From NCBI GenBank assembly GCA_964414795.1, contig CAYPWV010000001.1, positions 5,221 through 69,220 on the forward strand: 64,000 nt of DNA. The letters run 5' to 3'. The notes under the pieces are model-generated. The model made no database searches. It was not told the origin of the DNA and worked only from the letters and a program-made list of their open reading frames with translations. A program made the position numbers and the translations under genes. Positions 8,420-63,862 of the stretch are shown here, piece after piece (within the stretch, counting starts at the first letter, position 1; the number at the start of each line of letters is the position of its first letter). The stretch is from an uncultured Gammaproteobacteria bacterium (GTDB taxonomy: Bacteria > Patescibacteriota > Patescibacteriia > UBA9934).

Positions 8420-8423
8420 AAAA

Positions 8424-12278: not shown

Positions 12279-12280
12279 AG

Positions 12281-12497
12281 GTGAGAGTGTGAAGTTTGTA
12301 GTTGTTAGTTTGAAGTGAGTGGATGTTGTTTTTTATTGGAATGAAAGACAGCAGACGACAGATGGGGAAAGTAATCGGGGCTGTATTGTATTTAGGTGAG
12401 CAGATCATTTCTCTTATCCGTCGTCTGCTGTCTGTAGTCTGCTATCTCAAAAGAACTACCTTTCACTTCAAACTAACAACTACAAACTTCAAACCTT
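12281..12497. repeat. Family C long palindromic element (~215 bp; arms AGTTTGAAGTGAAAGG.../...CCTTTCACTTCAAACT, core GACAGCAGACGACAGA.../...TCTGTCGTCTGCTGTC)
   Basis: Nested inverted repeats seen directly. It starts 3 nt after the murG start codon (its 5'-UTR side) and overlaps the last codons of pyrG. Confidence 0.75.
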
Positions 12498-20264: not shown

Positions 20265-20267
20265 GGG

Positions 20268-20468
20268 AAGGAAAAGTTAGGAAGTTATTAGTTAGAAGCT
20301 TGAAGTGAAAGGTAGTTCCTTCGGGATAACAGACTACAGACAGCAAACGACAGATAAGAAATACCTGATTCTGATCACTTTCCCCATCTGCCGTCTGTAG
20401 TCTGCCGTCCTCACAAACAAAAACACCCTCCACTCACTTCAAACTACCGACTACAAACTTCAAACCCT
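20268..20468. repeat. Family C long palindromic element (full length)
   Basis: GAAGTGAAAGGTAGTTCC...GGAACTACC-like arms and GACAGCAAACGACAGA core. Lies between the divergent ctpA (starts 4 nt after the ctpA ATG) and PEGA genes. Confidence 0.75.
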
Positions 20469-20476
20469 TCCCTCCT

Positions 20477-29681: not shown

Positions 29682-29748
29682 AGGTGTTTATTACGTAATA
29701 ATTTTTTTCTTTTTCATAACATCCCACCCCCTAGCCCCAACACCCTCC

Positions 29749-30360
29749 CTACAATCTCCTCTCCCATAATCCTTTCACAAACCATTTTACCTCACCCATA
29801 ACAGACGTTGTGCGTATAAATGTTATGTCAACCGCATGAATGATGGGCTTTTCGGATATATCTTCGACTCCTGGAAGCGATAAAATGAGTTTATAAGCTC
29901 CGTTTTCTTTTTGCACGTTATCTAAAGAGAATGATGCTGTGCCGGATGTCCATTGATCGCTTTCCTGTTGAGAAGTAAGCGGTGAAAGAGTAAAGGTTTG
30001 TTGTGTGAAATTTTGCATTAAGCCGAGTTCGAATTTTTCTTGATCGTGCAGGTCGTAAGCGACGCTCACGTGCATCTCTTGCCACAGGCCCGCAGGAGGG
30101 ACTATCGACATGTACAACGGTTCGTCGATCGCCGTTATGCATGTGCCGCGATCATCAGCACAAGATGCCGTACGATTATCAGGAAGAGGTCGACCGATGA
30201 GCACTGAGTTCTCCCCTGCTTTCCAAGAAATAGTTTTTTCGCCCGATGGTGCGAGATAGATCCACGTGAGGATAGAAAATAATAAGACGGGAAGCGCTAT
30301 GGGAAGGAGCCAGGGAATAATAAGATGACGATCTTCTCTTTTATTCTCGGGTAATTGCAT
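29749..30360 (-). CDS. Membrane-anchored hypothetical protein (203 aa)
   Basis: Single N-terminal TM, then a soluble domain; overlaps the upstream GT-C gene by 20 nt. Confidence 0.4.
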   Translation of the reverse strand: MQLPENKREDRHLIIPWLLPIALPVLLFSILTWIYLAPSGEKTISWKAGENSVLIGRPLPDNRTASCADDRGTCITAIDEPLYMSIVPPAGLWQEMHVSVAYDLHDQEKFELGLMQNFTQQTFTLSPLTSQQESDQWTSGTASFSLDNVQKENGAYKLILSLPGVEDISEKPIIHAVDITFIRTTSVMGEVKWFVKGLWERRL

Positions 30361-32137
30361 ACAACGTTTCTTCGTTGAGGGTTATGACGGGAGTGAAAAT
30401 GATGTTTTCCTGCGCAAAGACGACGTCGTGGAGATACGCGAGATCTGATTGAGGAAACGTGATGCCGAAATAATAAAGCGGCGATGTAGCAAGAAGTTCG
30501 GGAATTGCGCGATATGTTTTTTCATCTCTCAACGGCACGATGACTGCACGATCGGGCCAGAGATATTTATCTGCACGATCGACAATAATGATTGCATCTT
30601 TGGGCGTAGATGCAAGAATGTTCGCTTGCTTTTCTGCAAACGTTGCAAGAGCTTCGCGCGTACGGAGCACGCCGTCATCACCTGTAAAGACGAGATGAGC
30701 TGAAAACAAAGTCATTCCTACGATACAAACAAGCGGGAGAGCGACGATGATCTTTTTCATCCATATCCTTTGCACGAACGAATGTGAAAAGTTTTTCACA
30801 TGGAGCAATGCATATGCCGTTGCAGGAGCAAGTGCTACAAACACCGGCAACCAATACCGCGTATGAGAATTTCCTAAAGAAATAATAGATGGATCGGGAT
30901 TATCAAAAAATGTCCAACTGCCGTAGAGAATGAGGAGGTAGAGGAGCGACACGGTGAGCAAAAGAAAAGAGACGGCAGAAGGCAGAAGGCAGAAAAGAAC
31001 TGTGAATTGAGAATGTCTGTCGTCTGCTGTCTGCTGTCTGTAAGCTCCAATCCATTTCTTCACAACCCCCCACACCAAACACCCCACACCCCCTACCCCC
31101 ACCACCGTCATCCACGGATACAACGCAAAAACATATCTCCACACGTTTTTCAGCGTTGCACGTTCATGAAATCCAAACGGAAAAAGAATGGCGAATACTT
31201 TTTCATACCACGGAATAATTGCACCTTGCGCAATGGTTCCGCCTACTTCCCATACCGGCTGACTCACCGTGTATCCCGTAATAAATGGCGATCCGTAGAT
31301 TGATGCATGCAAAAATAGCGTGATGCCAATCATGATTCCGCATCCTAAAAAGAGAGCGATGGCATCACAAAAAGACAGTTTTTTAGCGATGGATGCCTGC
31401 CTACCGGACAGGCAGGCCGGATCAAGTCCGACATGACGAGAAGCGAACCCCACGCCACGTCGTTCGCGAACGACGTGGCACCCCCAACACCCCACCCCCA
31501 ACACCCCTCCTATAATCCACACCCACTCAGAAGGACGAATTGCAAGTGCAGACGCAAACATGCCTCCTGCACAAAAAAGAAAAAAATATCGTGTACGCGA
31601 GTTCTCTTTCTTAATCGCCACAAGCACCATCCACACCGCAATCAACAACAGCGCAACAAAAGGCACGTTCGGCATAAGCGAACGGATACTGTAATACCAC
31701 CACGCCGGATGTACCGCGAGCGCAACAACACTCAGCAGCGCAAATTCCTGCGATCCACCCAAACGACGAATAATGCCGTACAGCGCACAAAGACCGAGGA
31801 TACAAAAAATCGGCCCCGTACTCACGGCAAGATACGGCGAAAAAAAGAAAAGTAATCCCGCAATGTACGGCATGCCCAAAAATCCTGCGGGGACGATTGC
31901 GGCACCGACCGTGGTTGTACTTCGCGGATGAAGCATGCCGTGCAAAGAAATGTTTCTCGCCTCATCACTTTTTGCAACGCCTGTTTCAGCGATGCTCTGC
32001 GCAAATGCCCATGTTGCATGTTCATCGGGCGAAACGAAGAGGTCATCGCGGGTTGCGTACGGAATCGCAAGAGAAAAAAGTGATGCACCGTAAGCAAGAG
32101 CAAGTGCTACGCAGGCAATTTTTTTAAGCGTGCTCAT
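30341..32137 (-). CDS. GT-C fold membrane glycosyltransferase (ArnT/PMT-like). It contains in-frame copies of repeat families A and C.
   Basis: Multi-TM N-terminal half with an early DE-containing loop (ATRDDLFVSPDE), large C-terminal soluble domain. Confidence 0.5.
   Translation of the reverse strand: MSTLKKIACVALALAYGASLFSLAIPYATRDDLFVSPDEHATWAFAQSIAETGVAKSDEARNISLHGMLHPRSTTTVGAAIVPAGFLGMPYIAGLLFFFSPYLAVSTGPIFCILGLCALYGIIRRLGGSQEFALLSVVALAVHPAWWYYSIRSLMPNVPFVALLLIAVWMVLVAIKKENSRTRYFFLFCAGGMFASALAIRPSEWVWIIGGVLGVGCWGCHVVRERRGVGFASRHVGLDPACLSGRQASIAKKLSFCDAIALFLGCGIMIGITLFLHASIYGSPFITGYTVSQPVWEVGGTIAQGAIIPWYEKVFAILFPFGFHERATLKNVWRYVFALYPWMTVVGVGGVGCLVWGVVKKWIGAYRQQTADDRHSQFTVLFCLLPSAVSFLLLTVSLLYLLILYGSWTFFDNPDPSIISLGNSHTRYWLPVFVALAPATAYALLHVKNFSHSFVQRIWMKKIIVALPLVCIVGMTLFSAHLVFTGDDGVLRTREALATFAEKQANILASTPKDAIIIVDRADKYLWPDRAVIVPLRDEKTYRAIPELLATSPLYYFGITFPQSDLAYLHDVVFAQENIIFTPVITLNEETLYAITRE
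30955..31040. repeat. Family C core motif (CAGACAGCAGACAGCAGACGACAGACA...) inside the GT-C CDS, in-frame
   Basis: Encodes ...LLPSAVSFLLLTV... with no stop codon. Confidence 0.6.
31386..31484. repeat. Family A palindromic element inserted in-frame in the GT-C CDS
   Basis: GCGATGGATGCCTGCCTACCGGACAGGCAGGCCGGATCAAGTCCGACATGACG plus a CCACGTCGTTCGCGAACGACGTGG palindrome. Translates as ...HVVRERRGVGFASRHVGLDPACLSGRQASIAKK... Confidence 0.7.
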
Positions 32138-32139
32138 AG

Positions 32140-32718
32140 CTAGAGCGAATAGGTGATGAGCGCAACGACCGCAAAAACAAGTGAAAGACCAAGCGTATAT
32201 TCTCCCGTTGCAATAAGCGCCGGTACTTCAAGTACAATACCAAGCAAGAGCAAACCAATGGACGTGCACTGCAACACCATTTTCGTTTTTCCCCACGCGT
32301 TCGCCATCATCACACCTCCGCTATACTTCTGTGATGCCCACCGCAACGACGGGAGAATGTCGAGAAAAATGGCAAAAAAGATCAGTGCCGGATGGTAATA
32401 TTTTAATCCTACAAGAAGTGCAACAGAACCTACGAGAAGCTTGTCGGCAATCGGATCAAAAAAGATTCCCCACGGAGTGATTTTATCTCGCACACGTGCA
32501 AGAGAGCCATCGATGACATCCGTAAACGCAGTTAACACAAAAAGAGGAACCGCAAGCAAATACCATTCGTTCGACAAAAACAACAATACGAAAGGCGTAA
32601 GCAGCATGCGCACAATGGTAACGTGATTTGGCTGAACAAACTCAGGAATAAAGGGTAAAACAACCGCTTTCATGAGCTTGTCATGCGGATATAAACGAGG
32701 TGCTTGTTTTTCAGGCAT
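32140..32718 (-). CDS. pgsA: CDP-alcohol phosphatidyltransferase (PgsA-like)
   Basis: DVIDGSLARVRDKITPWGIFFDPIADKLL matches the CDP-OH_P_transf motif. Confidence 0.7.
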   Translation of the reverse strand: MPEKQAPRLYPHDKLMKAVVLPFIPEFVQPNHVTIVRMLLTPFVLLFLSNEWYLLAVPLFVLTAFTDVIDGSLARVRDKITPWGIFFDPIADKLLVGSVALLVGLKYYHPALIFFAIFLDILPSLRWASQKYSGGVMMANAWGKTKMVLQCTSIGLLLLGIVLEVPALIATGEYTLGLSLVFAVVALITYSL

Positions 32719-32731
32719 ACTCTATGAAAAG

Positions 32732-34795
32732 ATGGTAACAGAATCTATGCGCCGTGTCTTTCTTGCTCTCACGTTTCTTTCCTGCGTTTCTCTGCTGGGA
32801 TCTGCGGTTTATTATACAAGCATCATTACACCAGGAACGCTCGTGCTGGCAACTTTAGGGGCGCTCTTGGTGACAGCGGGAATGGATCACTTCTTCGTCA
32901 TCCCGGATCAAGTCCGGCATGACGAAAAACAAAAAAACAAGATGACCGATACGGTGATCCGCCACTACGTTCTCTTCCTCATCGGTCTCTCCTCCCTCAT
33001 CATCTTTGTCTTCCTCGCGATCACCCATCCCATCACTACTGCTACCCGATCACTCTGGCTCCTCTTTTCTCCGACACACATTGTATTTTTGACGATCGCG
33101 TTTTTTTGTACGATTTTATTATATAAAAAACAAGAGGGCGGATACGTTGATCCGCCCCTACACGATCGACCGCCGCGGTACGCGGCGATTCTTGGCGGTC
33201 TGATTGCATTCGTCACGTCTGCACTTGCGGCGATACTCTTTCCACTAGGATTTGGATTCGATCCTTTTCTTCATCGCGCAACACTCGAGCACATCGCAAC
33301 ATTCGGAACCATCACGCCAAAACCACTGTATTACATCGGTGCGTACGCTCTTGAACTTTGTGGAAATCTTTTGCTTCGTATTCCATTATTTTCTCTTGAT
33401 GTTTTTTTGGCTCCAGTTGGATTTGCGTTTCTCGTTTTTATTGCAGTCCGTAGCAAGCAATTGCATCCCGCAATCCTCGCACTCCTTCCCTTTTCTGCAT
33501 TCGTGAGCACAACGCCGCAAGCCATAGGATTTTTGTGGATTTTTGCCGTGATTCTTGCGTTGAAAAATAATCTTCCGCAGTTGTATCTTTGGCTTTTTGC
33601 ACTTGCCGCACTTGCCGCGCATCCTATTGCCGGCGTTCCGGCGGTGATTTTGGTAACGATCTATTGTCTGTTGAACACGAAACGGAACAAAACGAACCAC
33701 GACAAGGTGGCCGATACGGTGATCGGCCACTACGGATCTATTCTTACCACCATTTTCATTATTCTCGGCATCCTCGCACTTCCGCTCATGTTCTTTGCGC
33801 AGCAGCTCATTACCGGCATGAACGTAGGATTTTCTTGGGTAGCGTTTACGGATTTTTCTCGCATTCCTTCTCTTGGATTTTTCTCGATGCAGGGACATGC
33901 GCTCATGGATACCGTCATGCTGTTTGGTGGAAATGTTTTTTTCATCACGGTGATTCTTGCAATTATTGGATTCATCGTGACTTTGGGTCAACGAAAAATC
34001 AATGCTAGATCTTTCGCACAATCACTCGCACTTTTGCTTGCAAGTATCGTTGCACTGGGTAACTTTGTGATGCTCAGTTTAGGATTTGATTTTCCGTTTC
34101 TCATTTCGTACGAACGTACCGATTTTGCGTTGCGACTGGTAACGATTGCGTGGATATTTCTTTTGCCCCTTGCGTCGGATGGAATGAAAAGGATTATAGG
34201 AATTGTGACGGAATGGAAATTACGCAAATCAGAAACACGATATTTAGAATCACATAGGGACGAATTGAGGACGTACGGGCGGGTTTTAAACCCGCCCCTG
34301 CATACGCGTCTAAAAAATGCCTACGGCATTTTACTCATTCTCATCCTTTTCTCCGCAAATATTTACACCACCTTTCCTCGACACGATGGCTACACGCGAT
34401 CGGCGGCGTTCAATGTTACTGTCGCAGATACCGAAATCGTCCACCGCATTGCCGATGATGCTGCAGGTGAATCCTACGCCGTACTCAGCAATCAAACGCT
34501 TGCTTCGATGGCTATCCAAGAATTTGGCTTTTTCCAGTACTTTCATAACAACATCTTCGCCTACCCCATCCCTACCAGCGGCCCACTCTACACGCTCTTT
34601 CTTACCATGATTACAACTCCCAATCTTGAAACTATTGCACAAGCTCACGATCTCACCGGCGCATCTCGCATCTACTTCGTGGTGCACAACTACTGGTGGG
34701 AAGCCGATCTTCGCATTGCCGAAACAAAAAAAATCGCAGACGCATATTTCACGTCTGCTGATGGAACGATTACCGTATTTGTCTTTTCCAGATAA
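32732..34795 (+). CDS. Large polytopic membrane protein of unknown function (about 690 aa). It has an internal protein-level duplication and in-frame copies of three different repeat families.
   Basis: More than 12 predicted TM helices. Start inferred at MVTESMRRVF. Repeats at 32896-32923 (A), 33136-33157 (F) and 34277-34297 (E) are all translated without stops. Confidence 0.5.
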   Translation: MVTESMRRVFLALTFLSCVSLLGSAVYYTSIITPGTLVLATLGALLVTAGMDHFFVIPDQVRHDEKQKNKMTDTVIRHYVLFLIGLSSLIIFVFLAITHPITTATRSLWLLFSPTHIVFLTIAFFCTILLYKKQEGGYVDPPLHDRPPRYAAILGGLIAFVTSALAAILFPLGFGFDPFLHRATLEHIATFGTITPKPLYYIGAYALELCGNLLLRIPLFSLDVFLAPVGFAFLVFIAVRSKQLHPAILALLPFSAFVSTTPQAIGFLWIFAVILALKNNLPQLYLWLFALAALAAHPIAGVPAVILVTIYCLLNTKRNKTNHDKVADTVIGHYGSILTTIFIILGILALPLMFFAQQLITGMNVGFSWVAFTDFSRIPSLGFFSMQGHALMDTVMLFGGNVFFITVILAIIGFIVTLGQRKINARSFAQSLALLLASIVALGNFVMLSLGFDFPFLISYERTDFALRLVTIAWIFLLPLASDGMKRIIGIVTEWKLRKSETRYLESHRDELRTYGRVLNPPLHTRLKNAYGILLILILFSANIYTTFPRHDGYTRSAAFNVTVADTEIVHRIADDAAGESYAVLSNQTLASMAIQEFGFFQYFHNNIFAYPIPTSGPLYTLFLTMITTPNLETIAQAHDLTGASRIYFVVHNYWWEADLRIAETKKIADAYFTSADGTITVFVFSR
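32896..32923. repeat. Family A minimal palindrome (CGTCATCCCGGATCAAGTCCGGCATGACG) in-frame in CDS
   Basis: Encodes FFVIPDQVRHDEK. Confidence 0.6.
33136..33157. repeat. Family F hairpin repeat GGGCGGATACGTTGATCCGCCC (in-frame in CDS; second copy at 63841-63862)
   Basis: Seen directly; encodes EGGYVDPPL. Confidence 0.6.
34277..34297. repeat. Family E hairpin repeat GGGCGGGTTTTAAACCCGCCC (in-frame in CDS; other copies at 42514-42536 and 47696-47716)
   Basis: Perfect palindrome seen directly; encodes GRVLNPPL. Confidence 0.65.
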
Positions 34796-35298
34796 AAAAA
34801 GTGGGCCCGGAGAAACTCTGCTAGAGAGTCCCTTCCGAGCCCGAGAACGAGTTGTAGGCGGGTCGCTTTGGATCCCCTGCCTACTTCACAGTTGAGTCCT
34901 CGGGACTTTCGTCCCGAGGTTGGGGGCGTGTCTCGCCCCCGGGAAACGTCAGTTTGAGAAGGACGAGCATAAGGCCCATCCTTAAAGCGCTTTTCCTCAC
35001 CGAAGTGAGGAGCGTACCCTGGGTTTCCTCAAAACCCCCCAGGCCTAAGCGCATTACCGCAGGAGCGCATCTGCGTCCTCCCGCAGTTCCAGGAAAAATC
35101 TCCCAACTTTTTTGTCGCCGAGGCTAACCTCGGCGACTTTAGTCCCACTTATCTCGTACAGAGGACCATCTCGGGTCCTCTACGTATTCCCAGGCAAAAG
35201 TCCTTTTTTGGGGTGGCCAGCCCCAGTAACTTTCTTTGGCCTCTTACTCTCCTTTGCAGGAGTTTCGATGGCTTCCCCGAAGGGTTTCACCACCGTGT
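34794..35298 (-). ncRNA. Unclassified, highly structured non-coding RNA of about 500 nt with its own near-consensus promoter and intrinsic terminator
   Basis: Minus-strand TTGACA, 17-nt spacer, TATTAT at 35333-35305. No ORF of 60 aa or more on the transcribed strand. Dense GC-rich hairpins with UUCG (x2), GAAA and GCAA tetraloops on the minus strand. Terminal long stem-loop followed by ACUUUUUUU at 34794-34860. Confidence 0.45.
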
Positions 35299-35304
35299 AA
35301 GAAC

Positions 35305-35333
35305 ATAATAGCATATTTTTTCATTTTTGTCAA
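35305..35333 (-). promoter_or_regulatory. Near-consensus sigma-70 promoter (TTGACA, 17-nt spacer, TATTAT) driving the ncRNA
   Basis: Seen directly on the minus strand. An upstream hairpin terminator at 35375-35400 (AAAAGAGCCUCACCGCUCUUUUUU) insulates it from the GT4 operon. Confidence 0.55.
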
Positions 35334-35426
35334 AAGCGTGCCGGAAAAGAGGGCTAGAAAATAGCTTATATAAAACAAAAAAGAGCGGTGAGGCTCTTTT
35401 GGGAAATTTGAGGAATTTGTTGCATT

Positions 35427-35534
35427 CGTCATGCCGGACTTGATCCGGTCTGCCTGTCCGGTAGGCAGGCATCCATCGTTTTTAACCCCATCTTTCTTGA
35501 TGCGATGGATCCCGGGTCGGTGCCCGGGATGACG
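35427..35534. repeat. Family A palindromic element, full-length intergenic copy (CGTCATGCCGGACTTGATCCGG...CCGGGTCGGTGCCCGGGATGACG)
   Basis: Terminal inverted repeats and internal palindromes seen directly. Confidence 0.75.
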
Positions 35535-35540
35535 AAAAGC

Positions 35541-36764
35541 CTATAAAATCACTTTTTCTTTACGCTTTTCGATAACCGCTACAAGAGTTTCGGTGAGCTT
35601 GGTGGCGTAGGTTTCGAGGGCGTAATCTGAAATGCTTGCGCGGATTTCTTCGCGGCGCTCGGCGAAATCTTCTTTGCGGCGATCAACTTCTTGCACAACA
35701 CGCTTTAAATCTTCTTCATTTCCTGGAGTAAACAACATGCCCGTTTCACCTTCGCACAAAAGCTCACCCACCCCCCCAATCTGTGAAGCAATAACTGGTA
35801 CACCTGCCATTAATGACTCGTAGATCACCGTAGGAGAGTTTTCGTAGCAAAGTGAAGGAACGATAAGCGCATCAACAACACTAAACACATTTGCAAGCTC
35901 TTCGGGAGGCGTGTAGCCCAAAAACACGATGCGCTTATCTTGCGCGGCCATGGTTTCAACCTCGCTCTTCATAGGCCCTGCTCCTGCAACATACAACCGC
36001 ACATCGCCGGTAAAGCGCTTGAGCGCATCAAGAAGGAACGCAAGACCTTTATGCTTTCCGAGCTGTCCTACAAACAACAACTTTAACGGTCCGCCCGAAC
36101 GTCCTTTTCTTTTATTCTCTGCATAGTTTGGCGCAGGATTCTGCATCACCATGCGCTCACTTTTTGGAAAAAACTTGTGTGCGTCGTACACGTCTTTTAA
36201 ATAACGCGAAGGAAAAATAACCAAATCGGGATTATCAAACTTTTGTTTGCACACCATGCGATATGCGCCGTACGCAATCTTTTGCAAAATATTTTGCTTT
36301 TCCTGTCCAAACATCAACAGACCCGAAGGAACGATAAGCTGCAAATCGTGCGCCACATGCACGTGAGGAATGTGCAGATCGGCAATAACGCTTGGGATAT
36401 TGAGACCGATGCCTTTGAGATTATGCGTGATGACCACGTCGGGCTGTTCGTCGCGCAAAATGGCGCGTATATGCTCGGCACCGTGCCAAGAAAGGGCATC
36501 GCGTACATGCCAAAAAAAACGAGTAAGCCAGGGATATTTGTAATCGTCAAGCGTAAAGTAAAAGTTACGCGGGAAAAATCGGTAAATGCGCTCGGTGCTT
36601 GACCGGTCGAGCACGACTTTTGTACCCAAACGCTTGGGGTGCCCGGTAATCACAAACACATCGTGCCCCATAGCCATAAGCTGGCCAACGGTGCGCACAA
36701 TAACGTTTTCTGCTCCTCCGCGCGAAAAAGGAGGATAGAGATTGGTGATAATCCCAATTTTCAT
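35541..36764 (-). CDS. Glycosyltransferase family 4 (GT-B, group 1)
   Basis: MKIGIITNLYPPFSRGGAE N-terminus, C-terminal E-x7-E region (GVGELLCEGETGMLF). Confidence 0.8.
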   Translation of the reverse strand: MKIGIITNLYPPFSRGGAENVIVRTVGQLMAMGHDVFVITGHPKRLGTKVVLDRSSTERIYRFFPRNFYFTLDDYKYPWLTRFFWHVRDALSWHGAEHIRAILRDEQPDVVITHNLKGIGLNIPSVIADLHIPHVHVAHDLQLIVPSGLLMFGQEKQNILQKIAYGAYRMVCKQKFDNPDLVIFPSRYLKDVYDAHKFFPKSERMVMQNPAPNYAENKRKGRSGGPLKLLFVGQLGKHKGLAFLLDALKRFTGDVRLYVAGAGPMKSEVETMAAQDKRIVFLGYTPPEELANVFSVVDALIVPSLCYENSPTVIYESLMAGVPVIASQIGGVGELLCEGETGMLFTPGNEEDLKRVVQEVDRRKEDFAERREEIRASISDYALETYATKLTETLVAVIEKRKEKVIL

Positions 36765-37909: not shown

Positions 37910-38090
37910 AGGTAGGGAAAGTTTGAAGTTTGGAGTTGGTAGTTTGAAGTGAAAGGATGTTCTGTTTTAGCGTGTCATCCTGAGGGAGTGCTACGTCGAC
38001 CGAAGGAACTTCCAGACGACAGACTGCAGAAGGCAGATGGGGAAAATGAAAGAACTGAGAGAACTGAGAGTGAGGATGGCATTAGTTAGT
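37910..38090. repeat. Family C element (left arm and core) with a nested family B half-copy (37968-38020)
   Basis: AGTTTGAAGTTTGGAGTTGGTAGTTTGAAGTGAAAGGATG arm is identical to the copy at 52305. The right arm is missing. It starts 3 nt after the GT4 start codon. Confidence 0.7.
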
Positions 38091-42454: not shown

Positions 42455-42513
42455 ACAAACAAAATACCGACGCTTTCGATTTGCAACTATGTACGTACAG
42501 GCGGTTGCTTGTA

Positions 42514-42536
42514 CGGGCGGGTTTTAAACCCACCCC
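42514..42536. repeat. Family E hairpin (GGGCGGGTTTTAAACCCACCC) immediately after the stop of the TPR gene
   Basis: Seen directly. It acts as a likely terminator hairpin for a minus-strand gene. Confidence 0.6.
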
Positions 42537-43300
42537 TACTCTGCGGTATGCAACTCCGGCGCCTTCCCATCATCTTCAGTAACATTCATCGCTTTACATG
42601 CGGCTATTGCAGCTTTTGCCTCATCAATCACTTGCTGACGAATTTCATCGGTTGTCGCAAGATCTTCTGCCACATCAAAATGATCGCGCGACCGATCACA
42701 ATCTCCTGCATCGGCATACCAATTTCCGAGTCCAATCATGTTAAACATCTTTCGCCCAAGTATTTCTACCGATTGCTCGTACAATTCTTTTACTTTATCA
42801 CGTTCATCGGGAAATTGCTGGGTGAGAATGCGAATAGCATCACGATATGTTGTTTCAATTGGCGTAAGTTCTACCGCGCGCAAATAGGCATTTTTTGCAT
42901 TTTCATAGTCTTGCATTGTAAACAATGTGTAGCCATAAGAACTCCACGTTGCACTGTTGAGCGAATTATACGTAAGAGATGCTTCAAGCGATTCACGCGC
43001 AAGAACTAAGTCACCCAAAATAAGTGCATCGCTTGCAATGGCATTATATAGATCGGTATTGATTTCTTGTCCCGCATCTTTTGATGCTTGGATGGAAGCC
43101 TGAGCTGTTGCAATACGCTGTTGTGCAAGTGTACGAACACCTTCGTCTGACTGCACATCTATGTGCGTTATCAATCCTTTGTACGGATCTTGATTCGTCC
43201 AAGAGTAGACGCCAATTCCGAGTGCAATAAGAACTGCAAGAACTGCTGCGGAAAAAATGTACTGTTCGCGAGAAAATTTCATATAAAGAAATGGTAGCAA
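42536..43300 (-). CDS. TPR-like repeat protein with N-terminal TM anchor
   Basis: Helical repeat content (tetratricopeptide-like AYLRAVEL..., YNSLNSATWSSYGY); weak. Confidence 0.4.
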   Translation of the reverse strand: MLPFLYMKFSREQYIFSAAVLAVLIALGIGVYSWTNQDPYKGLITHIDVQSDEGVRTLAQQRIATAQASIQASKDAGQEINTDLYNAIASDALILGDLVLARESLEASLTYNSLNSATWSSYGYTLFTMQDYENAKNAYLRAVELTPIETTYRDAIRILTQQFPDERDKVKELYEQSVEILGRKMFNMIGLGNWYADAGDCDRSRDHFDVAEDLATTDEIRQQVIDEAKAAIAACKAMNVTEDDGKAPELHTAE

Positions 43301-43389: not shown

Positions 43390-46300
43390 TTAGAACCGTA
43401 CTGATGAAGCACCGCTGAAGTCAGTGATGTCGACGAGGTATGCACCCCACCAGTCATCCTGGCCACCAACAGAACCGGACACACCATCATCCTTCCACAT
43501 GAAGGAAGCTGGCATGCGGTCAACGTCATCAGCCGCATCGTTGTTTGTACCAGCACTGTCACGTGCGGTGTTCAAGTAGCCACGAACAACGGTAAGGTCG
43601 TTCGTTGCAATGTTCACCAAGAGCATAAGCTCATCACCCGAAGCACAAGCGTTGTCAGCCGTGTCCATACAGAGAATATCTCCAATGGTGTAGGCAGCGC
43701 CGCTCGTTACACTGAGTGTAGTGTCAGTTGCTGTTACGTTGCTCTCGTTGAGGTCGCTTGCTGAGAGGAAGCTTGCTGCAGCAATGATCGGATCAGCTAC
43801 GATCTCGAACAATACGCTGTCATTATCAGCGCTTGCACCAGCCGCACTCATGTAGAGCGAATACGTCTTGGTGGTTCCCGCTGGAACAACTTCATCAGCA
43901 CTAAAGGTTGCCCGTACGTAAGTGAGATCTGCTGCGGTACCATCACACACTGCACCCGTAGACTTATAGAGAGTCCACGCTGCGTCTGCGGTGTCAAGAG
44001 CAGTCGTGAGGTTCGAACGATCATAGATGTCGAACTCAGTAGATGCCTTAACGTAGGTGCCAGGAGAAGAAGTATCACACGTATTCCAGTCAGATGCGGT
44101 CGTATCGGTAGCGGTCAACTTAAAGAGGACGCTATCCATAACCACATCTTCGCTAGAAGTTGCGGACACATTGAAACGAAGTACTTCAGGACGTCCACCT
44201 GCAACACCAGAGGTTGGGGAAGAGGAAGAACGAGCCACAGAAGGGTAAGATTCTTTTACTACGAAGGTAGGAACCAAATCGGTTGCGAATGCATCGTCAC
44301 CAATTGCGGATGCCTGATCATCGTCATCAAGAGTAGAACCCGATCCATCACCCGTTACCTGGAAGTTATCATCGCCCGTTGTGTCTACAAAGAGACCCAT
44401 ACGAACCATTTCGTTTGATGTTGCCGATCCACCAGACACACGGTCGGTAGAAGGAACATTCACATACACTTCAACATCGGTAGGTTCATCAACTGCTACA
44501 GGGATCGAGAGACCCGAGAAGCGAGCTGCATTTCCTGACATAGATGCGCTTGGAGCAGAACCCTCCATGCCATCCCATGCAAGAGAAACCGTGGAAACGT
44601 TGTTTGCATATGCACTTGAATCTGCAGTTCCTGTATCATCCTCAGCTTGCTCTTCAGAGAAGGAAAGCGTGTTGATAGTGAATGCTTCGTTCGTTGCCGT
44701 GAAGCGGTACGTTCCTACGTGGTTGTTTGAAGAACCGGTACGAAGGAAGTCTGCATCTGGCATGTCTGCAGCAACTGCTACAGAGAGCGATCCGGATGCG
44801 TTTACCGAAACAATGTTTGTTGCTGCGGTACCACCGTTTACTGCATCACCCGTTGCCGTTACCGTGTCACCATCTTCATCTTCTGCGGTAATGTCGGCGC
44901 TAACGTCGGCAAGATCAAAAGAGAGATAGGTAACCGTAGCTTCGGAAGGGTTTGCAAGATTACACTCTACATTCAAGGTAACTACATCGGATGATTCAAG
45001 GATCCAATCCATGTTGTCGAAGGTGATGGTGTTACCCGTTGAAGCAGGAGCTTCAGGACCACCTACAAGCGTACTGCCATCGTAAAGAGAGCAGGACTCA
45101 ACATAATCTTCTACCTGACCATCTGTTTCACCACCAAGTACCAACGTGGTGTCGTCAGCATCTCCATAAGCGGAGAGCACAATGTCGGTAACCGTTACAT
45201 CGGAGGAGTCACCTGCCGTTACAGTAAAGCCTACAACCGTATGGCTGTCGGTACCCTGAACGGTCGTGGTGTCACCTGGCGTAGAAGCCAAAGCGATTGT
45301 AAGGGAAGCGGACAATGCTTCTTGGTTATAACCGGTAAGGTCAGAACCAGGAACGATGTCAGATCCAGAAAGTGCGTCACCATTGCCGTCTTCGATCGAA
45401 AGACCGGAAACGTCAAGAGCAGCAGCAAATTCGGTACCCGAAGTTGCAGAGCTATCAATGTCTGCAGTAACTGCAAGGTTCAAGGTTGAACCCGCTTCAA
45501 TTGTGGTGTCGTCCGTGAAGTCGATGGTTTGATCTGCGTCATCACCTGCGGTGACTGCAGAATCAAGTTCCAAAGGACCCATGAATACAGCACCGGTATC
45601 TACGTTGATGATCTTGATATCTTTCAAGTTTGCATCAGCCGTGTTGATCAAACCGTCAGCATCAGAAGCTGCGGCACCAGAGGAATCATCTACTGCATCA
45701 GTTGCATCGTTATCGCCGTCGTCATCACCGTACACGATGATGTCGAGGTCCTTAACGGTAACTTCCTGAGCTGCGGTAAGAGAGAACTCCAAGAGAACCT
45801 GATCTTGACCATCAACCTGAACGTCGCCTGCGGAAGGACCATTAAATGCGAACGTTACTTCGCCACCCTGCACGGTACTGAATGAACAGTTACCGGAAGA
45901 AGTGGTACAAGAAGTACCGTCGTATGAACCGGAGTCTGCGGAAGCGATGTACACCGTGAGGCCATGACCGTAGTCACCACCCTCAGCAACAACGTCAATC
46001 GCATTGTCTACGAATACCTTAACGGTATCTGCATCTTGACCACCGATATCAGCGGAAAGACGGAAGATATTGCTGTCACCTTCTTCGATGTCAAATGGAC
46101 TATCGGAAAGATCACAAACAACCTGATCGCTCACGGTGTTTTCACACACAACGAGCCATTCAGAACCATCCCATAGGTTGTAATCTGAGTGATCGGAAGC
46201 GTTATCAACCTTGAGGGTGATAAGTTCTACCGAAGCATCTTCAGAACCCGTTGCATCGATTTTGAACTCTGCAATTTCTGCATCGTCTTCACCGATGGTT

Positions 46301-47523
46301 GGGTTATCAATGGTACCCGTCTTGGTAATGGTTACGTTACCGGAATCAGATCCAGAAAGCGTAAATTCATCACCAGAAACTGGGAAGTCTCCGTCTACAT
46401 CACCAGAAGCGGTGATCATCTCTGCAGATTCAATTTCGAATCCGAAAGTGTCAGCCGCGGTTTGAGACGCAGAAACGGTTACCTTGACATCAAGAGTTAC
46501 CGTTTCACCTGCAGGGATCTCCACATCAAGCGAACTCATAGTAACTTCGCGTGTAGAAGAGTTCACCGTGCGAGATTCGGTAAGACGCGTTGCACCTTCG
46601 TAAAGGTACACTGCAGCAATATTGGTGGTAGCACCTGCACCTGTTAAGGAGAGGACAAGACCATCAAGTGTTGCATCCTCAGAACCTGCTTCAACGTCGA
46701 AAGAGAATACTTCAACGCCATTTGCGCCACCTGTTACGGTGGAACCTACTGGCATAGAAGAAGCTTCGGAGATAGTGATATCACCCGTTGTAGTAGGCTC
46801 ATCAGTTTCTTCGGTTTGTGCAGCATCTACAAGAGAGGTCACTTCCGAAGAAATGTCATCACCTGCAGTAAGTGCGCTGTCATCGATGCCGGAACCATCC
46901 AAAACGAATTTGGACATAAGACCATTAGCATCCATGCCATCATCACTTACCATACGCATTTCATCATCCCATGAAAGGTACGTATAGCTACCAGACTCGT
47001 AAAGAGCTCCTTCGTATACGGTAGCCTCCATAAGAGAGGTGCCTACGGTGTAATCTGCAAAGAATACATCAGGAACGTCAACAACTCGGCTGCTCCAATC
47101 GGAACCGGCAAAGTCTTCAGCGACGTCTTCAGATTCAATCCAGTGGAGCATGCCGTCGCGAGCAACTGCATACACACTTTCATCAGACTGTACCTTTACC
47201 CACCAAGAACCAGGACGCATAACCACGTTACCACCAAGGGTAATGTCGGAAAGAGCGCTGTCGGAGATGGTAGATACATCATCAAAGTCAGCGTACCAAG
47301 AGAAGAACGTGGTTTCGTTAGGGAATACGTAGCGCTCGCCGTCATAACCGTAGTAATAAACGGTGGAGAGAGACGTTCCCTTGATGAGATCGCCAGCAGA
47401 AGCTGCGCTCACCGATGCAGGGGAAACAAGAAGGCCTGCACCTACGGAGAAAGCAATGGTCGCCGCAGCTACTGCTGCAGAGAAAACACGCTTACCCGTT
47501 TGAAGAACATGTTGCATAAGCAA
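43390..47523 (-). CDS. Giant secreted acidic repeat protein (1377 aa), putative cell-surface/S-layer-like or adhesin
   Basis: Signal peptide (AFSVGAGLLVSPASVSAASA), then repetitive Thr/Ser/Asp/Gly-rich beta-type segments. No stops over 4.1 kb. Confidence 0.7.
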   Translation of the reverse strand: MLMQHVLQTGKRVFSAAVAAATIAFSVGAGLLVSPASVSAASAGDLIKGTSLSTVYYYGYDGERYVFPNETTFFSWYADFDDVSTISDSALSDITLGGNVVMRPGSWWVKVQSDESVYAVARDGMLHWIESEDVAEDFAGSDWSSRVVDVPDVFFADYTVGTSLMEATVYEGALYESGSYTYLSWDDEMRMVSDDGMDANGLMSKFVLDGSGIDDSALTAGDDISSEVTSLVDAAQTEETDEPTTTGDITISEASSMPVGSTVTGGANGVEVFSFDVEAGSEDATLDGLVLSLTGAGATTNIAAVYLYEGATRLTESRTVNSSTREVTMSSLDVEIPAGETVTLDVKVTVSASQTAADTFGFEIESAEMITASGDVDGDFPVSGDEFTLSGSDSGNVTITKTGTIDNPTIGEDDAEIAEFKIDATGSEDASVELITLKVDNASDHSDYNLWDGSEWLVVCENTVSDQVVCDLSDSPFDIEEGDSNIFRLSADIGGQDADTVKVFVDNAIDVVAEGGDYGHGLTVYIASADSGSYDGTSCTTSSGNCSFSTVQGGEVTFAFNGPSAGDVQVDGQDQVLLEFSLTAAQEVTVKDLDIIVYGDDDGDNDATDAVDDSSGAAASDADGLINTADANLKDIKIINVDTGAVFMGPLELDSAVTAGDDADQTIDFTDDTTIEAGSTLNLAVTADIDSSATSGTEFAAALDVSGLSIEDGNGDALSGSDIVPGSDLTGYNQEALSASLTIALASTPGDTTTVQGTDSHTVVGFTVTAGDSSDVTVTDIVLSAYGDADDTTLVLGGETDGQVEDYVESCSLYDGSTLVGGPEAPASTGNTITFDNMDWILESSDVVTLNVECNLANPSEATVTYLSFDLADVSADITAEDEDGDTVTATGDAVNGGTAATNIVSVNASGSLSVAVAADMPDADFLRTGSSNNHVGTYRFTATNEAFTINTLSFSEEQAEDDTGTADSSAYANNVSTVSLAWDGMEGSAPSASMSGNAARFSGLSIPVAVDEPTDVEVYVNVPSTDRVSGGSATSNEMVRMGLFVDTTGDDNFQVTGDGSGSTLDDDDQASAIGDDAFATDLVPTFVVKESYPSVARSSSSPTSGVAGGRPEVLRFNVSATSSEDVVMDSVLFKLTATDTTASDWNTCDTSSPGTYVKASTEFDIYDRSNLTTALDTADAAWTLYKSTGAVCDGTAADLTYVRATFSADEVVPAGTTKTYSLYMSAAGASADNDSVLFEIVADPIIAAASFLSASDLNESNVTATDTTLSVTSGAAYTIGDILCMDTADNACASGDELMLLVNIATNDLTVVRGYLNTARDSAGTNNDAADDVDRMPASFMWKDDGVSGSVGGQDDWWGAYLVDITDFSGASSVRF

Positions 47524-47695
47524 TAAAGAATTGGCTCTTTTACCCCAGAGCCGGGGGTGAGTGTGAAGAAGGACAAAGCCGGCCCTGCGGCCTCGACTTT
47601 TACTGGATTTGTCAGGGATGCGAACGCCATCCCTTCAGAGGCCATCACGTGGGGTGATGATGTCTAAAGGAAGGGTGTTGTAGAGGCGGGGGTAG

Positions 47696-47716
47696 GGGCG
47701 GGTTTTAAACCCGCCC
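47696..47716. repeat. Family E hairpin (GGGGCGGGTTTTAAACCCGCCC) after the stop of the anti-sigma-like gene and inside the 5' leader of the giant gene
   Basis: Seen directly. Confidence 0.6.
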
Positions 47717-47738
47717 GTACAAGCCCCCCGCCCTTGCG

Positions 47739-51063: not shown

Positions 51064-52302
51064 CTATTGTATCGCCTCCGTATAGATGCCAAAAAGACCC
51101 TCCCAATGTTTATCCGGATCCCCTACCGCTATCCCTCGTACAGCGGCCTGGAGACGCATCTCTTGCACAGCGGAGGCGTTTTTATCGCCTTCAGAAGCAA
51201 GGAGAAAACGGATGTGTTTCTCCCACACATCAAGCGCATCCGGATGCTCCACAAACCCTGAAATGCCATGCTCCACAATCTCCGATAATCCCCCTTCGCT
51301 GCTCACGATTACGGGAGTTCCCAGCGACAATGACTCAAGCCCAACAAGACCAAAAGGCTCAGGCCACCGCGACGGCACAATAACGCCTGCCGCATGCTTG
51401 ATCATCTCCCAAAGTGCTTGAGGCGTTTGCACAGAAAGTACAGAAAGATTTTTTCTCTTGGCTGCAAGTTTGCGAAGCGGTTCTTCCTGAGCGCCATGAC
51501 CTACACATACAAACGTAACGTCCGGCATACGCACCACCAGCTCCATAAGTACATCAACGCCTTTATACGTTTCAAAACGACTAGCGAAAATAATTTGGGG
51601 GATACGATGTGTTCGTACGGGCGGAACATTTTCCGCCCCTACAGATGCTCCCGATGGCAACGGCAACACACGAATATTCATAGCGCGATACCCCCCATCA
51701 GTGAGTGCTTTTTTTACGGCATGCGATGCGGTGAGAATGTGCGTTACACCTTGCGTCCACATACCACACCTTTTTTGCACACGGACGACCGCATCCACAA
51801 CGCCCGTTGCAAACGCCGAATTTTTTATGCATTTCGTTCTCACCACGTCGCGCCACGACGCGTGCGCAGACAACGGACCCACGCCATCAAACAATCCGTA
51901 ATTTGCGCTGATATATCCGTAATCGTGCGCCGTGAGCACCACGGGAACACCCGCATCTTTTGCAGCACTCAGCACTGACGGCGAGAGATGTGTGTATAGA
52001 TTATGCGCGTGAATGACATCGGGCTTGAACGCAGCAATTATTGCGCGTGTTTTTTTATACGCTTCGTAACTCCAGAGTGTTCTTCCTAATTGTCGCAACG
52101 CCTGTATCCCCTTCCCCACGCCTGAGGTTTCAAGATTGCTTACAAAAAAATGCTCCCACGGTGAAGTATTATTTTCCGGATGATGCATGGCGAGCACGGC
52201 CGTTGCGTGGCCATGTGCATCCGCCAGGCGCATCACATCGTGCATATATCTCCCCACGCCATCGCGTTCGTGGTTGTATTTGTTAATGTGGAGAATGCGC
52301 AT
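51064..52302 (-). CDS. Glycosyltransferase family 4
   Basis: MRILHINKY...GVGRY N-domain, EPFGLVGLESLSLGTPVI C-domain motif. Confidence 0.8.
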   Translation of the reverse strand: MRILHINKYNHERDGVGRYMHDVMRLADAHGHATAVLAMHHPENNTSPWEHFFVSNLETSGVGKGIQALRQLGRTLWSYEAYKKTRAIIAAFKPDVIHAHNLYTHLSPSVLSAAKDAGVPVVLTAHDYGYISANYGLFDGVGPLSAHASWRDVVRTKCIKNSAFATGVVDAVVRVQKRCGMWTQGVTHILTASHAVKKALTDGGYRAMNIRVLPLPSGASVGAENVPPVRTHRIPQIIFASRFETYKGVDVLMELVVRMPDVTFVCVGHGAQEEPLRKLAAKRKNLSVLSVQTPQALWEMIKHAAGVIVPSRWPEPFGLVGLESLSLGTPVIVSSEGGLSEIVEHGISGFVEHPDALDVWEKHIRFLLASEGDKNASAVQEMRLQAAVRGIAVGDPDKHWEGLFGIYTEAIQ

Positions 52303-52304
52303 AG

Positions 52305-52508
52305 GGGAGAGTTTGAAGTTTGGAGTTGGTAGTTTGAAGTGAAAGGATGTTTTTTTTGTTGGATGAAGATGAAAGACAGCAGACTACAGACGACAGATTA
52401 GTGAAGTGATCAGAATCAGATATCTTTCATCTGTCGTCTGCTGTCTGTATTCTGTTATTTCAAAGGAACTACCTTTCACTTCAAACTCTTAACTTATAAC
52501 TTCACACC
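52305..52508. repeat. Family C long palindromic element (full length)
   Basis: Arms AGTTTGAAGTTTGGAGTTGGTAGTTTGAAGTGAAAGGATG / GGAACTACCTTTCACTTCAAACTC. Core GACAGCAGACTACAGACGACAGA / TCTGTCGTCTGCTGTCTG. It starts 3 nt after the GT4 start codon and overlaps the Wzy-like gene stop. Confidence 0.75.
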
Positions 52509-54038
52509 TTCCCCATCATCACTCTTCACCCTCGACACCACAAAGCCACACAACACCCACACATACGGTGCCATGGTGCGGACTTCGAAAAAAGTGGCGA
52601 GGAAGGCGTTGAGGGAAAAAGCAACGAGAATTGCTGCCGTGGCTCCGGCAACGGCGCGAATGTCTTTATCTTCGTGATGGAGTGCGGTATGCACACACAA
52701 TAAAAACAAACTGATATAAAACCACAGAAAAGCGCCTAGTCCGATAATTCCAAGCTCGCCCCACAAACTCAACCAATTGTTATCAATATATCCGCCGGTT
52801 CCGTACACACCAAAAGGCAAACTTAAGCGATCGTACACGAGTGTATTCCCCAGTGCCGCAGCCGCACCACCTCCATACTGTCCAGGACCCACACCAAACA
52901 ACGGCGATGACGGCACCACGGTAAGCACGGTTTCCACAACCCAATAGAGGCGACCAAACCCGACATATTCCCCCCGCCAACGTTCGTAAGAAAATGCTTC
53001 AAAGAAACGTTCCGCAACCGTCTGCTCCGGAGTATCGGTAAGCGTGTTTACGAGAAGATTGCTGCCGAAGATGTAGGCCGCTAAAAGAAACGGTGCGATC
53101 ATTGCACACCACAACACGCGCTTATCTTTTTTAAGGAAAATGGCGTAGAAAAGAAAAGCGAGCAAAAATCCAAACCATGCAGAACGCGAATACGTTAACA
53201 CGAGCACAGGAATACCTAGCGCAAGAAGAACCATGCACGCTATTTTTGCCTGCTTTCCTAAACGCTTATCGTATAAAAAGGCAATGGTGAGCAAAAATAC
53301 GAGCGCCAAAAAAATACCCAACTGATCGTAACGCCCCATGGTGCCAAACACACGCTGCCCAGGATCCCAAAATTGATCGGTGCCTTCGGTGAGTTGGATG
53401 TTGCCGAGTGTTCTACGTTCTGAGGGGAGCAAAAAAGCATCGAATGATCCACCAGCAATAGCCTGCAATCCACCGATGGCAACTTGGATGCCCGCAACGG
53501 TTATCAAAATAATCAACAGTGATTTCATCCATTGTTTTGAAGGGGCAAGTTGCACTACGACAAAAAACAAAAGTAAGAAACGAATAAGCTGCCGCGCGCC
53601 AAGGAGCGCAATTGCCGGATCAATAACGTTCACCACAACAGACGCAACAATGGCTACCAAAAAAAAGAAAAATGGTGCATCAAGTGCTGAACGCTTCCAT
53701 TTCTTCTCATGCCAAAACATGTGCAAGAGCACTGACGCTACAAGCATGTACACCACAAGCTCAGAACCATAGCGCGCAAGGACATACACTTCATCGGGAA
53801 TCCACTTCAAAATAAACGGCTCAAACGGCAAATACGCAAGCAATCCCAAAAGCACCTGCTGCGGACGCCACCAGGCAAGTGCAATAAGCGCAACTCCTGC
53901 CGTAAGCGCAATCGTTACTGCGGGAGACGTGAATAACGACAAAAATAATGCACCGCCCACAATGGCAAATAGCACGATCATGGCAATGCGTGCCTTGGTA
54001 TCTGCAAGAAGGATATGAAGGTGAAGATGTTGCCGCAT
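52494..54038 (-). CDS. O-antigen ligase/polymerase family (Wzy-like) membrane protein
   Basis: About 12 TM helices. LTYSRSAWFGFLLAF motif is typical of the Wzy_C / O-antigen ligase domain. Confidence 0.65.
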   Translation of the reverse strand: MRQHLHLHILLADTKARIAMIVLFAIVGGALFLSLFTSPAVTIALTAGVALIALAWWRPQQVLLGLLAYLPFEPFILKWIPDEVYVLARYGSELVVYMLVASVLLHMFWHEKKWKRSALDAPFFFFLVAIVASVVVNVIDPAIALLGARQLIRFLLLFFVVVQLAPSKQWMKSLLIILITVAGIQVAIGGLQAIAGGSFDAFLLPSERRTLGNIQLTEGTDQFWDPGQRVFGTMGRYDQLGIFLALVFLLTIAFLYDKRLGKQAKIACMVLLALGIPVLVLTYSRSAWFGFLLAFLFYAIFLKKDKRVLWCAMIAPFLLAAYIFGSNLLVNTLTDTPEQTVAERFFEAFSYERWRGEYVGFGRLYWVVETVLTVVPSSPLFGVGPGQYGGGAAAALGNTLVYDRLSLPFGVYGTGGYIDNNWLSLWGELGIIGLGAFLWFYISLFLLCVHTALHHEDKDIRAVAGATAAILVAFSLNAFLATFFEVRTMAPYVWVLCGFVVSRVKSDDGEGVKL

Positions 54039-55837: not shown

Positions 55838-55919
55838 CGTCATGCCGGACACCCACCTCCGCTAAAGCTACGGTTGGGCAGGCCGATTCGGCATCTTTGA
55901 TTTTTAACTAATTTTTCTT
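55838..55919. repeat. Family A element, left part, disrupted by the IS insertion (right part at 57894-57933)
   Basis: CGTCATGCCGGAC...TTTTTAAC...TTTTTCTT on the left; TTTTTCTT-TATGCGATGGATCCCGGGTCAAGCCCGGGATGAC on the right. Confidence 0.7.
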
Positions 55920-55966
55920 GGAGACTATCCCTTGACAGCACCTATACCACGTGTTAATATAGTGGC

Positions 55967-56824: not shown

Positions 56825-56896
56825 TAATCGCATCAAAATCTTCGACAGTTATAGCCTTATTTTTAGCGGGTTTATTTTTCATATCTTAATAATACA

Positions 56897-57856: not shown

Positions 57857-57943
57857 ATCGTTCGTATTGAGGTGCTGTCAAGGGATAGTCGCCTTTTTCT
57901 TTATGCGATGGATCCCGGGTCAAGCCCGGGATGACAGGACTTA

Positions 57944-62473: not shown

Positions 62474-62559
62474 ATCACAAGATCCTGAGCTCGGCGAAGG
62501 ATCTAGCGAACGAATAAGAGATATCTGACAAATGGGTTCTCTGGACCCTTCCTATCGTC

Positions 62560-62600
62560 AGGGTCTTTCCATTCACTTCAAACTCTTAACTTCATACTTC
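62560..62600. repeat. Family C right-arm remnant (CACTTCAAACTCTTAACTTCATACTTCAACC)
   Basis: Matches the right arm of the copy at 52470-52508. Lies between rpmI and rplT. Confidence 0.55.
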
Positions 62601-62613
62601 AACCTCTCTCCAT

Positions 62614-63840: not shown

Positions 63841-63862
63841 GGGCGGATACGTTGATCCGCCC
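63841..63862. repeat. Family F hairpin GGGCGGATACGTTGATCCGCCC, intergenic copy
   Basis: Identical core to 33136-33157. Confidence 0.6.

Follow-up and report, generated by a model that had tools for sequence, protein, structure and literature searches.

Family A, a set of palindromic repeats in a 64-kb stretch of Patescibacteria DNA (the whole stretch analysed, hereafter the window), is a known, bacteria-wide class of element in a new host and not a new kind of element. From its sequence features we assign it with confidence to the superfamily of CGTC-tagged REPs, with the subfamily number uncertain. The best explanation of the data, to which we give a probability of roughly 85%, is that Family A consists of CGTC REPs, which would have spread without target duplication, by hairpin recognition in trans, and may persist as neutral or mildly useful elements. 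This places a group of puzzling palindromes in a named class and corrects an earlier reading of them as MITEs and of the shortest one as an excision footprint.

Anatomy of the element and of its four copies

Four related copies were found in the 64 kb by nhmmer, with E values from 1e-32 to 1e-3 (Table 1). Searches with an nhmmer profile of the long copies and with blastn gave no further diverged copies in the window beyond these four places. The end motif CGTCATGCCGGAC occurred seven times with at most two mismatches, as compared to 1.24 occurrences expected, and none of 100 shuffled sequences reached seven; a scan of the window for the format of the unit gave 7 matches, against 2.1 in shuffles. 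Folding, shuffle controls and nhmmer together confirm that Family A is real and that the intact intergenic copy lies exactly where the initial annotation had placed it.

This complete element, copy 1, started with CGTCATGCCGGAC and ended with CCCGGGATGACG, its termini reading CGTCAT.../...ATGACG with the hairpins inside. When compared with shuffled sequence its folding was pronounced, both as RNA (-57 kcal/mol, z -4.7) and as DNA (-31.9 kcal/mol, z -5.3), and the predicted fold consisted of a terminal stem and three internal hairpins. The full element is built of two inverted tagged hairpins around an A+T-rich spacer, that is, a REPIN-like HH dimer. Its building block can be written CGTC-(AT-N-CCGGA)-CTTGA-(TCCGG-N'-AT)-CCA, a basic unit of about 28 nt in which the tag (CGTC or TGTC) is unpaired, AT opens the 8-bp stem, the loop has 5 nt and CCA forms the tail. 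Inverted-repeat ends and further palindromes in the interior, as described initially, are indeed present, but the ends are not simple inverted repeats, each of them being a complete hairpin unit. We also considered the terminal repeats as transposase-binding TIRs and rejected this identity, each of them being a whole REP hairpin with an unpaired CGTC tag.

Across the four copies there were six CGTC tags (35427, 35534, 31438, 32896, 32924 and 55838) and one TGTC tag (57936). Strict units were located at 35534 (-), 57936 (-) and 32896/32924, with 7-8 of 8 stem pairs: the stem ATCCCGGG/CCCGGGAT was paired at 8/8 positions in two units, and ATCCCGGA/TCCGGCAT at 7/8 in copy 3. Four units had a loop of 5 nt, CTTGA or TCAAG, and one a loop of 6 nt, CACCGA. 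Both right units have a CCA tail, and so do the left units of copies 1 and 2, in which the tail follows the nested hairpin.

The left units in the window were non-canonical. Their arms (ATGCCGGA ... CAT) matched those of the right units but were split, the stem being interrupted either by a nested hairpin or by a 37-nt loop insertion. Once the 21-nt nested hairpin was removed, the left unit of copy 1 became a canonical unit, as in the 132 units listed from elsewhere (see below). Within the window the nested hairpin sequence occurred only at 35450-35468 (copy 1) and at 31397-31415 (copy 2). In copy 1 the ends of the spacer pair with each other and lengthen the CCA/TGG tails. As to their dimer form, HH heterodimers are seen in copies 1 and 4, a truncated dimer in copy 2 and a collapsed one in copy 3; the nested hairpins inside units and the exact collapsed derivative are details of some interest.

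Table 1. Positions of the Family A copies, of their parts and of directly associated features in the window.
Feature	Position	Strand	Description
Copy 1	35427-35534	+	Complete HH heterodimer (tags outward) of two CGTC REP units; intergenic; 108 nt
Copy 1, left unit	35427-35475	+	CGTC-ATGCCGGA-CTTGA-TCCGG-[21-nt nested hairpin]-CAT-CCA
Copy 1, nested hairpin in 3' arm of left unit	35449-35469		21 nt, TCTGCCTGTCCGGTAGGCAGG
Copy 1, spacer	35476-35505	+	A+T-rich, 30 nt, TCGTTTTTAACCCCATCTTTCTTGATGCGA
Copy 1, right unit	35506-35534	-	CGTC-ATCCCGGG-CACCGA-CCCGGGAT-CCA, 8/8 stem pairs
Intrinsic-terminator-like hairpin and T-run, GT4 operon	35379-35400	-	Site lies beyond copy 1 when seen from the stop codon
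Copy 2	31353-31438	-	Truncated dimer, left unit with nested hairpin, and spacer; about 85-86 nt
Copy 3	32896-32924	no strand	Collapsed dimer, 29 nt, CGTC-ATCCCGGA-TCAAG-TCCGGCAT-GACG
Copy 4, left part	55838-55919	+	CGTC-ATGCCGGA-[37-nt loop insertion]-TTCGGCAT, and spacer to the IS duplication
IS1595-family insertion sequence	55920-57893	+	Not part of Family A; splits copy 4 in the spacer
Copy 4, right part	57894-57936	+	Second 8-bp duplicate (57894-57901), remaining spacer, right unit

Copy 2, which spans 86 nt in the alignment with copy 1, was 80% complementary to 35426-35511 and was without the right-hand terminal hairpin. It had been described as an in-frame copy in the GT-C gene at 31386-31484; the in-frame position held, whereas the range had to be replaced by the one in Table 1. 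In this GT-C/PMT_2 gene it codes for ...RHVGLDPACLSGRQASIAKKLSF..., in a loop between hydrophobic segments. The gene (30341-32137, -) has a PMT_2 domain and its protein aligned end to end with 19 homologues. At the exact place of copy 2 it carried an unalignable stretch of 33 residues and about 21 extra residues that are absent from 19/19 homologues. Beside copy 2 we noted a separate perfect palindrome of 26 nt, GCCACGTCGTTCGCGAACGACGTGGC, at 31454-31479. It is unique in the window, is likewise in frame in the GT-C gene and adds to the extra loop residues of the protein.

Copy 3 also stands in frame, coding for FVIPDQVRHDE in a variable loop of a 707-aa membrane protein (ORF 32672-34795, likely true start M21, 1033 homologues). 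This loop is hypervariable and was different in every homologue. The minimal, in-frame copy in the membrane protein gene had thus been recognised correctly, apart from its last nucleotide, which had been placed at 32923. For both in-gene copies the host genes are intact and conserved.

Base for base, copy 3 (CGTCATCCCGGATCAAGTCCGGCATGACG) is the reverse complement of copy 1 minus 79 internal nt. The junction falls at a 4-nt CCGG direct repeat that is common to both terminal hairpins, and the single C-C mismatch in the stem results from the arms coming from the heterodimer's two different units. Where short direct repeats lie across a long palindrome, replication slippage is well known to produce deletions between them. 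Hairpin-stimulated slippage accounts for copy 3 at least as well as excision by a transposase does, and the ends-only copy alone is therefore no proof of mobility. The proposal that copy 3 is an excision footprint, which would imply mobility, was right about its derivation from the full element, as the exactness of the 79-nt deletion demonstrates, but transposase excision is not needed, slippage being sufficient. A collapsed form like copy 3 was also found in two unrelated genomes (L004 and L047).

Copy 4 is interrupted by an IS1595 insertion, as had been seen before; its range consists of the two parts given in Table 1 and does not end at 57933. The loop of its left unit holds the 37-nt insertion (55850-55886) and the tail is CTT instead of CCA. 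The left part ends 7 nt upstream of the start of an HtrA-like gene. On the minus strand the right unit reads TGTC-ATCCCGGG-CTTGA-CCCGGGAT-CCA, with 8/8 pairs. The inverted repeats of the IS (23 nt, GGAGACTATCCCTTGACAGCACC) are unrelated to the CGTC ends, and its insertion generated an 8-bp target duplication, TTTTTCTT, at 55912-55919 and 57894-57901. When the IS and one of the duplicates were taken out, copy 4 aligned with copy 1. The IS1595 transposase was single-copy in our data. An empty site without the IS was sought in the second sequencing run and none was found, the IS being at the same place in both runs. Within the IS there is a passenger ORF (56897-57856, -, 319 aa) that matched no Pfam family and whose VTAHH and GGISGSPVF motifs suggest a chymotrypsin-fold serine protease.

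Relation to CGTC-tagged REPs and occurrence in other genomes

CGTC-tagged REPs were defined by Di Nocera, De Gregorio & Rocco (2013, BMC Genomics 14:522; PMC3733652). In their description the tag is CGTC, sometimes TGTC (variants TGTC/CCTC), the stem measures 8-9 bp with AT first almost invariably, the loop has 4-5 nt and the tail is CCA; the units form mainly HH dimers, often heterodimers, 20-100 bp apart, which are placed mostly less than 20 bp after stop codons, with some in-frame intragenic cases (PMC3733652). Their families comprise tens to thousands of units per genome, an associated transposase was found in no genome, and the hosts listed in 2013 belong to five phyla, Patescibacteria not among them (PMC3733652). 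Family A agrees with this description in tag, stem, loop, tail, HH dimers, placement after stop codons and in-frame copies, and within the window it has no linked transposase of its own flanked by the units. Moreover, its unit is identical in sequence to CGTC REP units of Sphingomonadales (PMC3733652), and it translates to RHPGLDPGS / WxPDQVRxD, the peptides given for CGTC REPs in Additional file 3 of that paper, where RHPGLDPGS is listed for Erythrobacter litoralis and WTPDQVRGD for Sphingopyxis alaskensis (PMC3733652).

Family A differs from the CGTC REPs of 2013 in its host, a member of the candidate phyla radiation (CPR), and in the nested 21-nt hairpin or 37-nt loop insertion of its left units; the composite left unit recurs in a second CPR genome (L202). 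The host was recognised as a CPR bacterium from homologues of the proteins encoded in the window, which bear names from Patescibacteria and Uhrbacteria. By count the loop is 5 nt here, whereas the Sphingomonadales units are labelled CGTC-1, a subfamily with 4-nt loops, and CGTC-2 to CGTC-4 fit 5 nt (PMC3733652). The subfamily number is uncertain because of this mismatch.

RPE-4 and RPE-6 of Rickettsia have been equated with CGTC-4 and CGTC-1, respectively (PMC3733652), and the in-frame copies described here are therefore the same phenomenon as the RPEs. As in the RPEs, in-frame palindromes add a short predicted peptide in tolerated surface or loop regions while the gene remains intact. Family A differs from the RPEs in its host lineage, and only two of its four copies are intragenic. 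Annotators of Patescibacteria proteins should be aware that an extra loop in frame, or an odd extension at the C-terminus, can come from a REP insertion.

With GTAG REPs and REPINs, Family A has in common the tagged hairpin, the inverted doublet around a spacer, the lack of target duplication and the location in 3' regions of genes. The tag, however, is CGTC and not GTAG, and the cognate RAYT gene of the GTAG elements has no counterpart in the window. The GTAG tag combined with a flanked cognate RAYT, by which REPIN-RAYT systems are recognised, was thus not found there, and it is the doublet architecture that is shared. GTAG REPs and REPINs are reportedly mobilised by RAYT tyrosine transposases, in accounts attributed to Nunvar in 2010 and to Bertels and Rainey in 2011. 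BIMEs of E. coli and RIMEs of rhizobia are mosaic intergenic clusters, the BIMEs being built from GTAG-type REPs, and the Correia-type MITEs of Neisseria have true TIRs and a TA duplication. Family A resembles BIMEs, RIMEs and Correia-type MITEs in its nested small palindromes, in being an occasional IS target and in its predicted transcription together with neighbouring genes. It is unlike the Correia-type MITEs in that both the TA duplication and the true TIRs are missing.

The unit was then followed across other genomes. A search for the 22-mer CGTCATNNCGGAYTTGATCCGG with one genome per species matched at least 120 genome contigs, as compared to about 2 expected by chance, an estimate from database size. 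The hosts listed were Sphingomonadales, Rhizobiales, Desulfobacterota, Nitrospirota, Dehalococcoidia, Binatia, Oscillospiraceae, Elusimicrobia, Bipolaricaulota, Bacteroidota, an actinobacterium and a Patescibacteria genome. Among the matches listed, the 22-mer was present in Sphingopyxis and Agrobacterium, among others, and the G+C content of the matched loci ranged from 36% to 70%. The 132 listed units displayed the format seen in the window: the free stem position was Watson-Crick paired in 94%, against 35% expected from base frequencies, with all four pair types represented; AT closed the stem in 92%, a CCA tail was present in 77%, and in 67% an inverted partner lay at most 140 nt away, the median dimer measuring 83 nt. 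Among the 88 listed dimers, the tag was preceded by a pyrimidine in 86% and the dimer followed by a purine in 91%. CGTC REPs are hereby extended to the candidate phyla radiation, and the identical unit occurs far more widely than in the five phyla of 2013. In two metagenome scans, the lineage-specific composite CCGGTAGGCAGGCATCCATCG and the composite pattern TCCGGYCTGCCTGN{4,8}GGCAGGCATCCA both gave 0 matches. The 22-mer was furthermore observed in 78 predicted viral or prophage contigs of IMG/VR (L122-L199), several of them with two or three units.

Dispersal, mechanism and alternative explanations

From the stop codon of a GT4 gene (35541-36764, -) it is 6 nt downstream to copy 1, which lies ahead of a terminator-like hairpin, and from that of ORF 57944-58720 (-) it is 7 nt to copy 4. 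Two syntenic relatives with the same gene order were compared over 21.7 kb each, L203 (a Logan assembly) and L206 (GCA_965006295.1), and no CGTC unit was found in the 21.7 kb of syntenic DNA of either. At the site of copy 1 the conserved terminator of L203 follows directly on the stop codon, and the sequence of L206 is unrelated; with the relatives at 58-66% protein identity, exact insertion boundaries are not readable at these empty sites. The terminator of the GT4 operon has been kept in position in both, with no REP there. In another Patescibacteria genome, L202, a composite core TCCGGTCTGCCTG..GGCAGGCATCCA (34 nt, 94% identical) was found at a different site, where it lengthens the reading frame of that genome's GT-C gene at the 3' end. 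Absence from L203 and L206 and the different site in L202 indicate that the composite dispersed within the lineage. Dispersal of the Family A copies is thus supported by their four unrelated loci, by their absence from relatives and by the composite elsewhere in L202.

None of the four window copies was bordered by a target-site duplication, and among the 88 listed dimers elsewhere flank matches were no commoner than in shuffled pairings. A Pfam scan of 60 window ORFs gave no Y1_Tnp/RAYT/HUH or other candidate transposase, that of IS1595 being the only transposase, and no parent IS with CGTC ends was present in the 64-kb window. Of the checks that the initial annotation had proposed, the one for target-site duplications hence came out negative, as did, within the window, the one for a cognate transposase. 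In the literature searched, nothing later was found on how CGTC REPs are mobilised, nor anything on REPs or MITEs of Patescibacteria.

How could such units have spread? On the model of GTAG REPs, which are moved by tyrosine HUH transposases (RAYTs), we propose that CGTC units would spread when a putative enzyme acting in trans recognises the tagged hairpin in single-stranded DNA. The copies may persist as neutral elements or as mildly useful stem-loops at RNA 3' ends. Given their position after the stop codon and ahead of the terminator, copies would be transcribed into 3' untranslated regions, and the intergenic copies predicted in such regions should be able to fold into a stable four-way structure. 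Decay of the copies has taken place through collapse (the 79-nt deletion), truncation and IS insertion.

It is conceivable, albeit with low probability, that the units are moved and targeted by a hairpin-specific enzyme for single-stranded DNA which has no recognisable RAYT character and might serve a conserved housekeeping function or be borne by phages. If true, this would explain the presence of an identical 22-mer across more than 10 phyla and in viral contigs, and the enzyme might be findable in the small CPR gene set through comparison of REP-bearing with REP-free sisters. CPR genomes typically measure roughly 1 Mb, and a lineage that includes both kinds of sister is a compact place to seek the enzyme mobilising CGTC REPs.

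Improbable as well is mainly a functional RNA kept by selection, a 3'-UTR stabiliser or attenuator acting between stop codon and terminator, for which spread would be secondary. The intergenic copies, 6-7 nt after a stop codon and in the case of copy 1 preceding a terminator-like site, are well placed for such a role, and the predicted fold of the minus-strand transcript (-64.1 kcal/mol, z -5.2) is compatible with it; many REPs have been argued to act as RNA (PMC3733652). The covariation of the stem across genomes points in the same direction, but a DNA-level constraint on the palindrome predicts it equally. Moreover, the element also occurs in frame in two coding regions, where a 3'-UTR role is impossible, and the orthologous operons in L203 and L206 do without it. 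Rfam had no match for it either: at gathering thresholds tmRNA was the only match in the whole window, and a permissive search of 34600-35700 left the element without any. A function as RNA alone is unlikely to be a complete explanation.

A classical MITE is less probable still. The element would be derived from an IS with a DDE transposase and be moved by cut-and-paste through its TIRs, with the 29-nt copy left as an excision footprint. Inverted-repeat ends, dispersed copies that are absent from relatives and the existence of an ends-only copy would all be expected of a MITE. However, target duplications were neither found at the four copies nor in excess among the 88 listed dimers, and each supposed TIR is itself a self-complementary hairpin with a covarying stem, which is the signature of a REP. 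IS1595, the sole IS in the window, is bordered by an 8-bp duplication of its own, and its ends are unrelated to those of Family A. As for the 29-nt copy, it keeps 11 + 18 nt joined at CCGG, the pattern of palindrome slippage and not that of a transposon scar. Since there are no target-site duplications, the MITE reading fails and the REP reading holds; of the "MITE- or REP-like" architecture suggested at first only the second term can be retained, the ends being complete covarying hairpin units.

Chance or low-complexity G+C-rich palindromy, or a metagenome assembly artefact, can practically be dismissed: independent short-read contigs do break inside the CCCGGG hairpin, a type of site at which assemblers struggle, but chance is contradicted by the shuffle controls, contigs from two separate sequencing runs share the junctions, that of the IS insertion included, and the family recurs in isolate genomes of other bacteria. 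The short-read contigs of the organism that stop inside the CCCGGG hairpin of the right unit are L001, at its end (2441), and L200, at its start (1); REP dimers consequently fragment assemblies of this genome.

Other repeats and features in the window

GTAG-tagged REPs coexist with Family A and constitute families separate from the CGTC units. One set is located at 32932-32968, 33125-33161, 33697-33733 and 63830-63866, a second one at 34273-34302, 42511-42540 and 47692-47721. The reverse complement of 33125-33161 reads GTAG-GGGCGGAT-CAACGT-ATCCGCCC, and the unit at 47692 is GTAG-GGGCGGGTTT/AAACCCGCCC. Four GTAG REPs stand in frame in the gene of the 707-aa membrane protein; in comparison with homologues, the ones at 33125, 33697 and 34273 each add a clean insert of about 12-18 residues.

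Another observation concerned the stretch 34796-35345 (-), about 500 nt without a long ORF behind a near-consensus promoter at 35333-35305 (TTGACA, 17 nt, TATTAT). It folded at -234.5 kcal/mol (z -7.6) and had no Rfam match. The 28-nt promoter was 96% identical at the syntenic place in L206, before an unrelated stretch of about 600 nt; in L203 there are only 45 nt. The stretch may represent either a structured RNA that evolves rapidly or several clustered palindromes.

Composite intergenic repeats of about 140-230 nt, 72-89% alike, were found at 12276-12506, 20267-20476, 37910-38051, 52299-52517 and 62559-62611. This family reads GAAGTTTG.AGTTG.TAGTTTGAAGTGA ... and has its own internal inverted repeat. 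Three copies of GTGTCATCCTGAGGGAG...GTCGACCGAAGGA, 83-95% alike, were located at 1634-1675, 4599-4644 and 37971-38016; they start with TGTC-AT like CGTC REPs, but their outer stem has only 5 bp and their interior is long. G-rich/C-rich low-complexity repeats, GGGGTGTGGGG and its complement, occurred at 437-475, 29723-29756, 31065-31100 and 31479-31517, two of them inside the GT-C gene.

As to coding regions, a 1377-aa ORF at 43390-47523 had no Pfam match. At 7436-9404, Pfam identified a cytosine-5 DNA methylase beside a HaeIII-type restriction endonuclease, that is, a GGCC-type restriction-modification pair.
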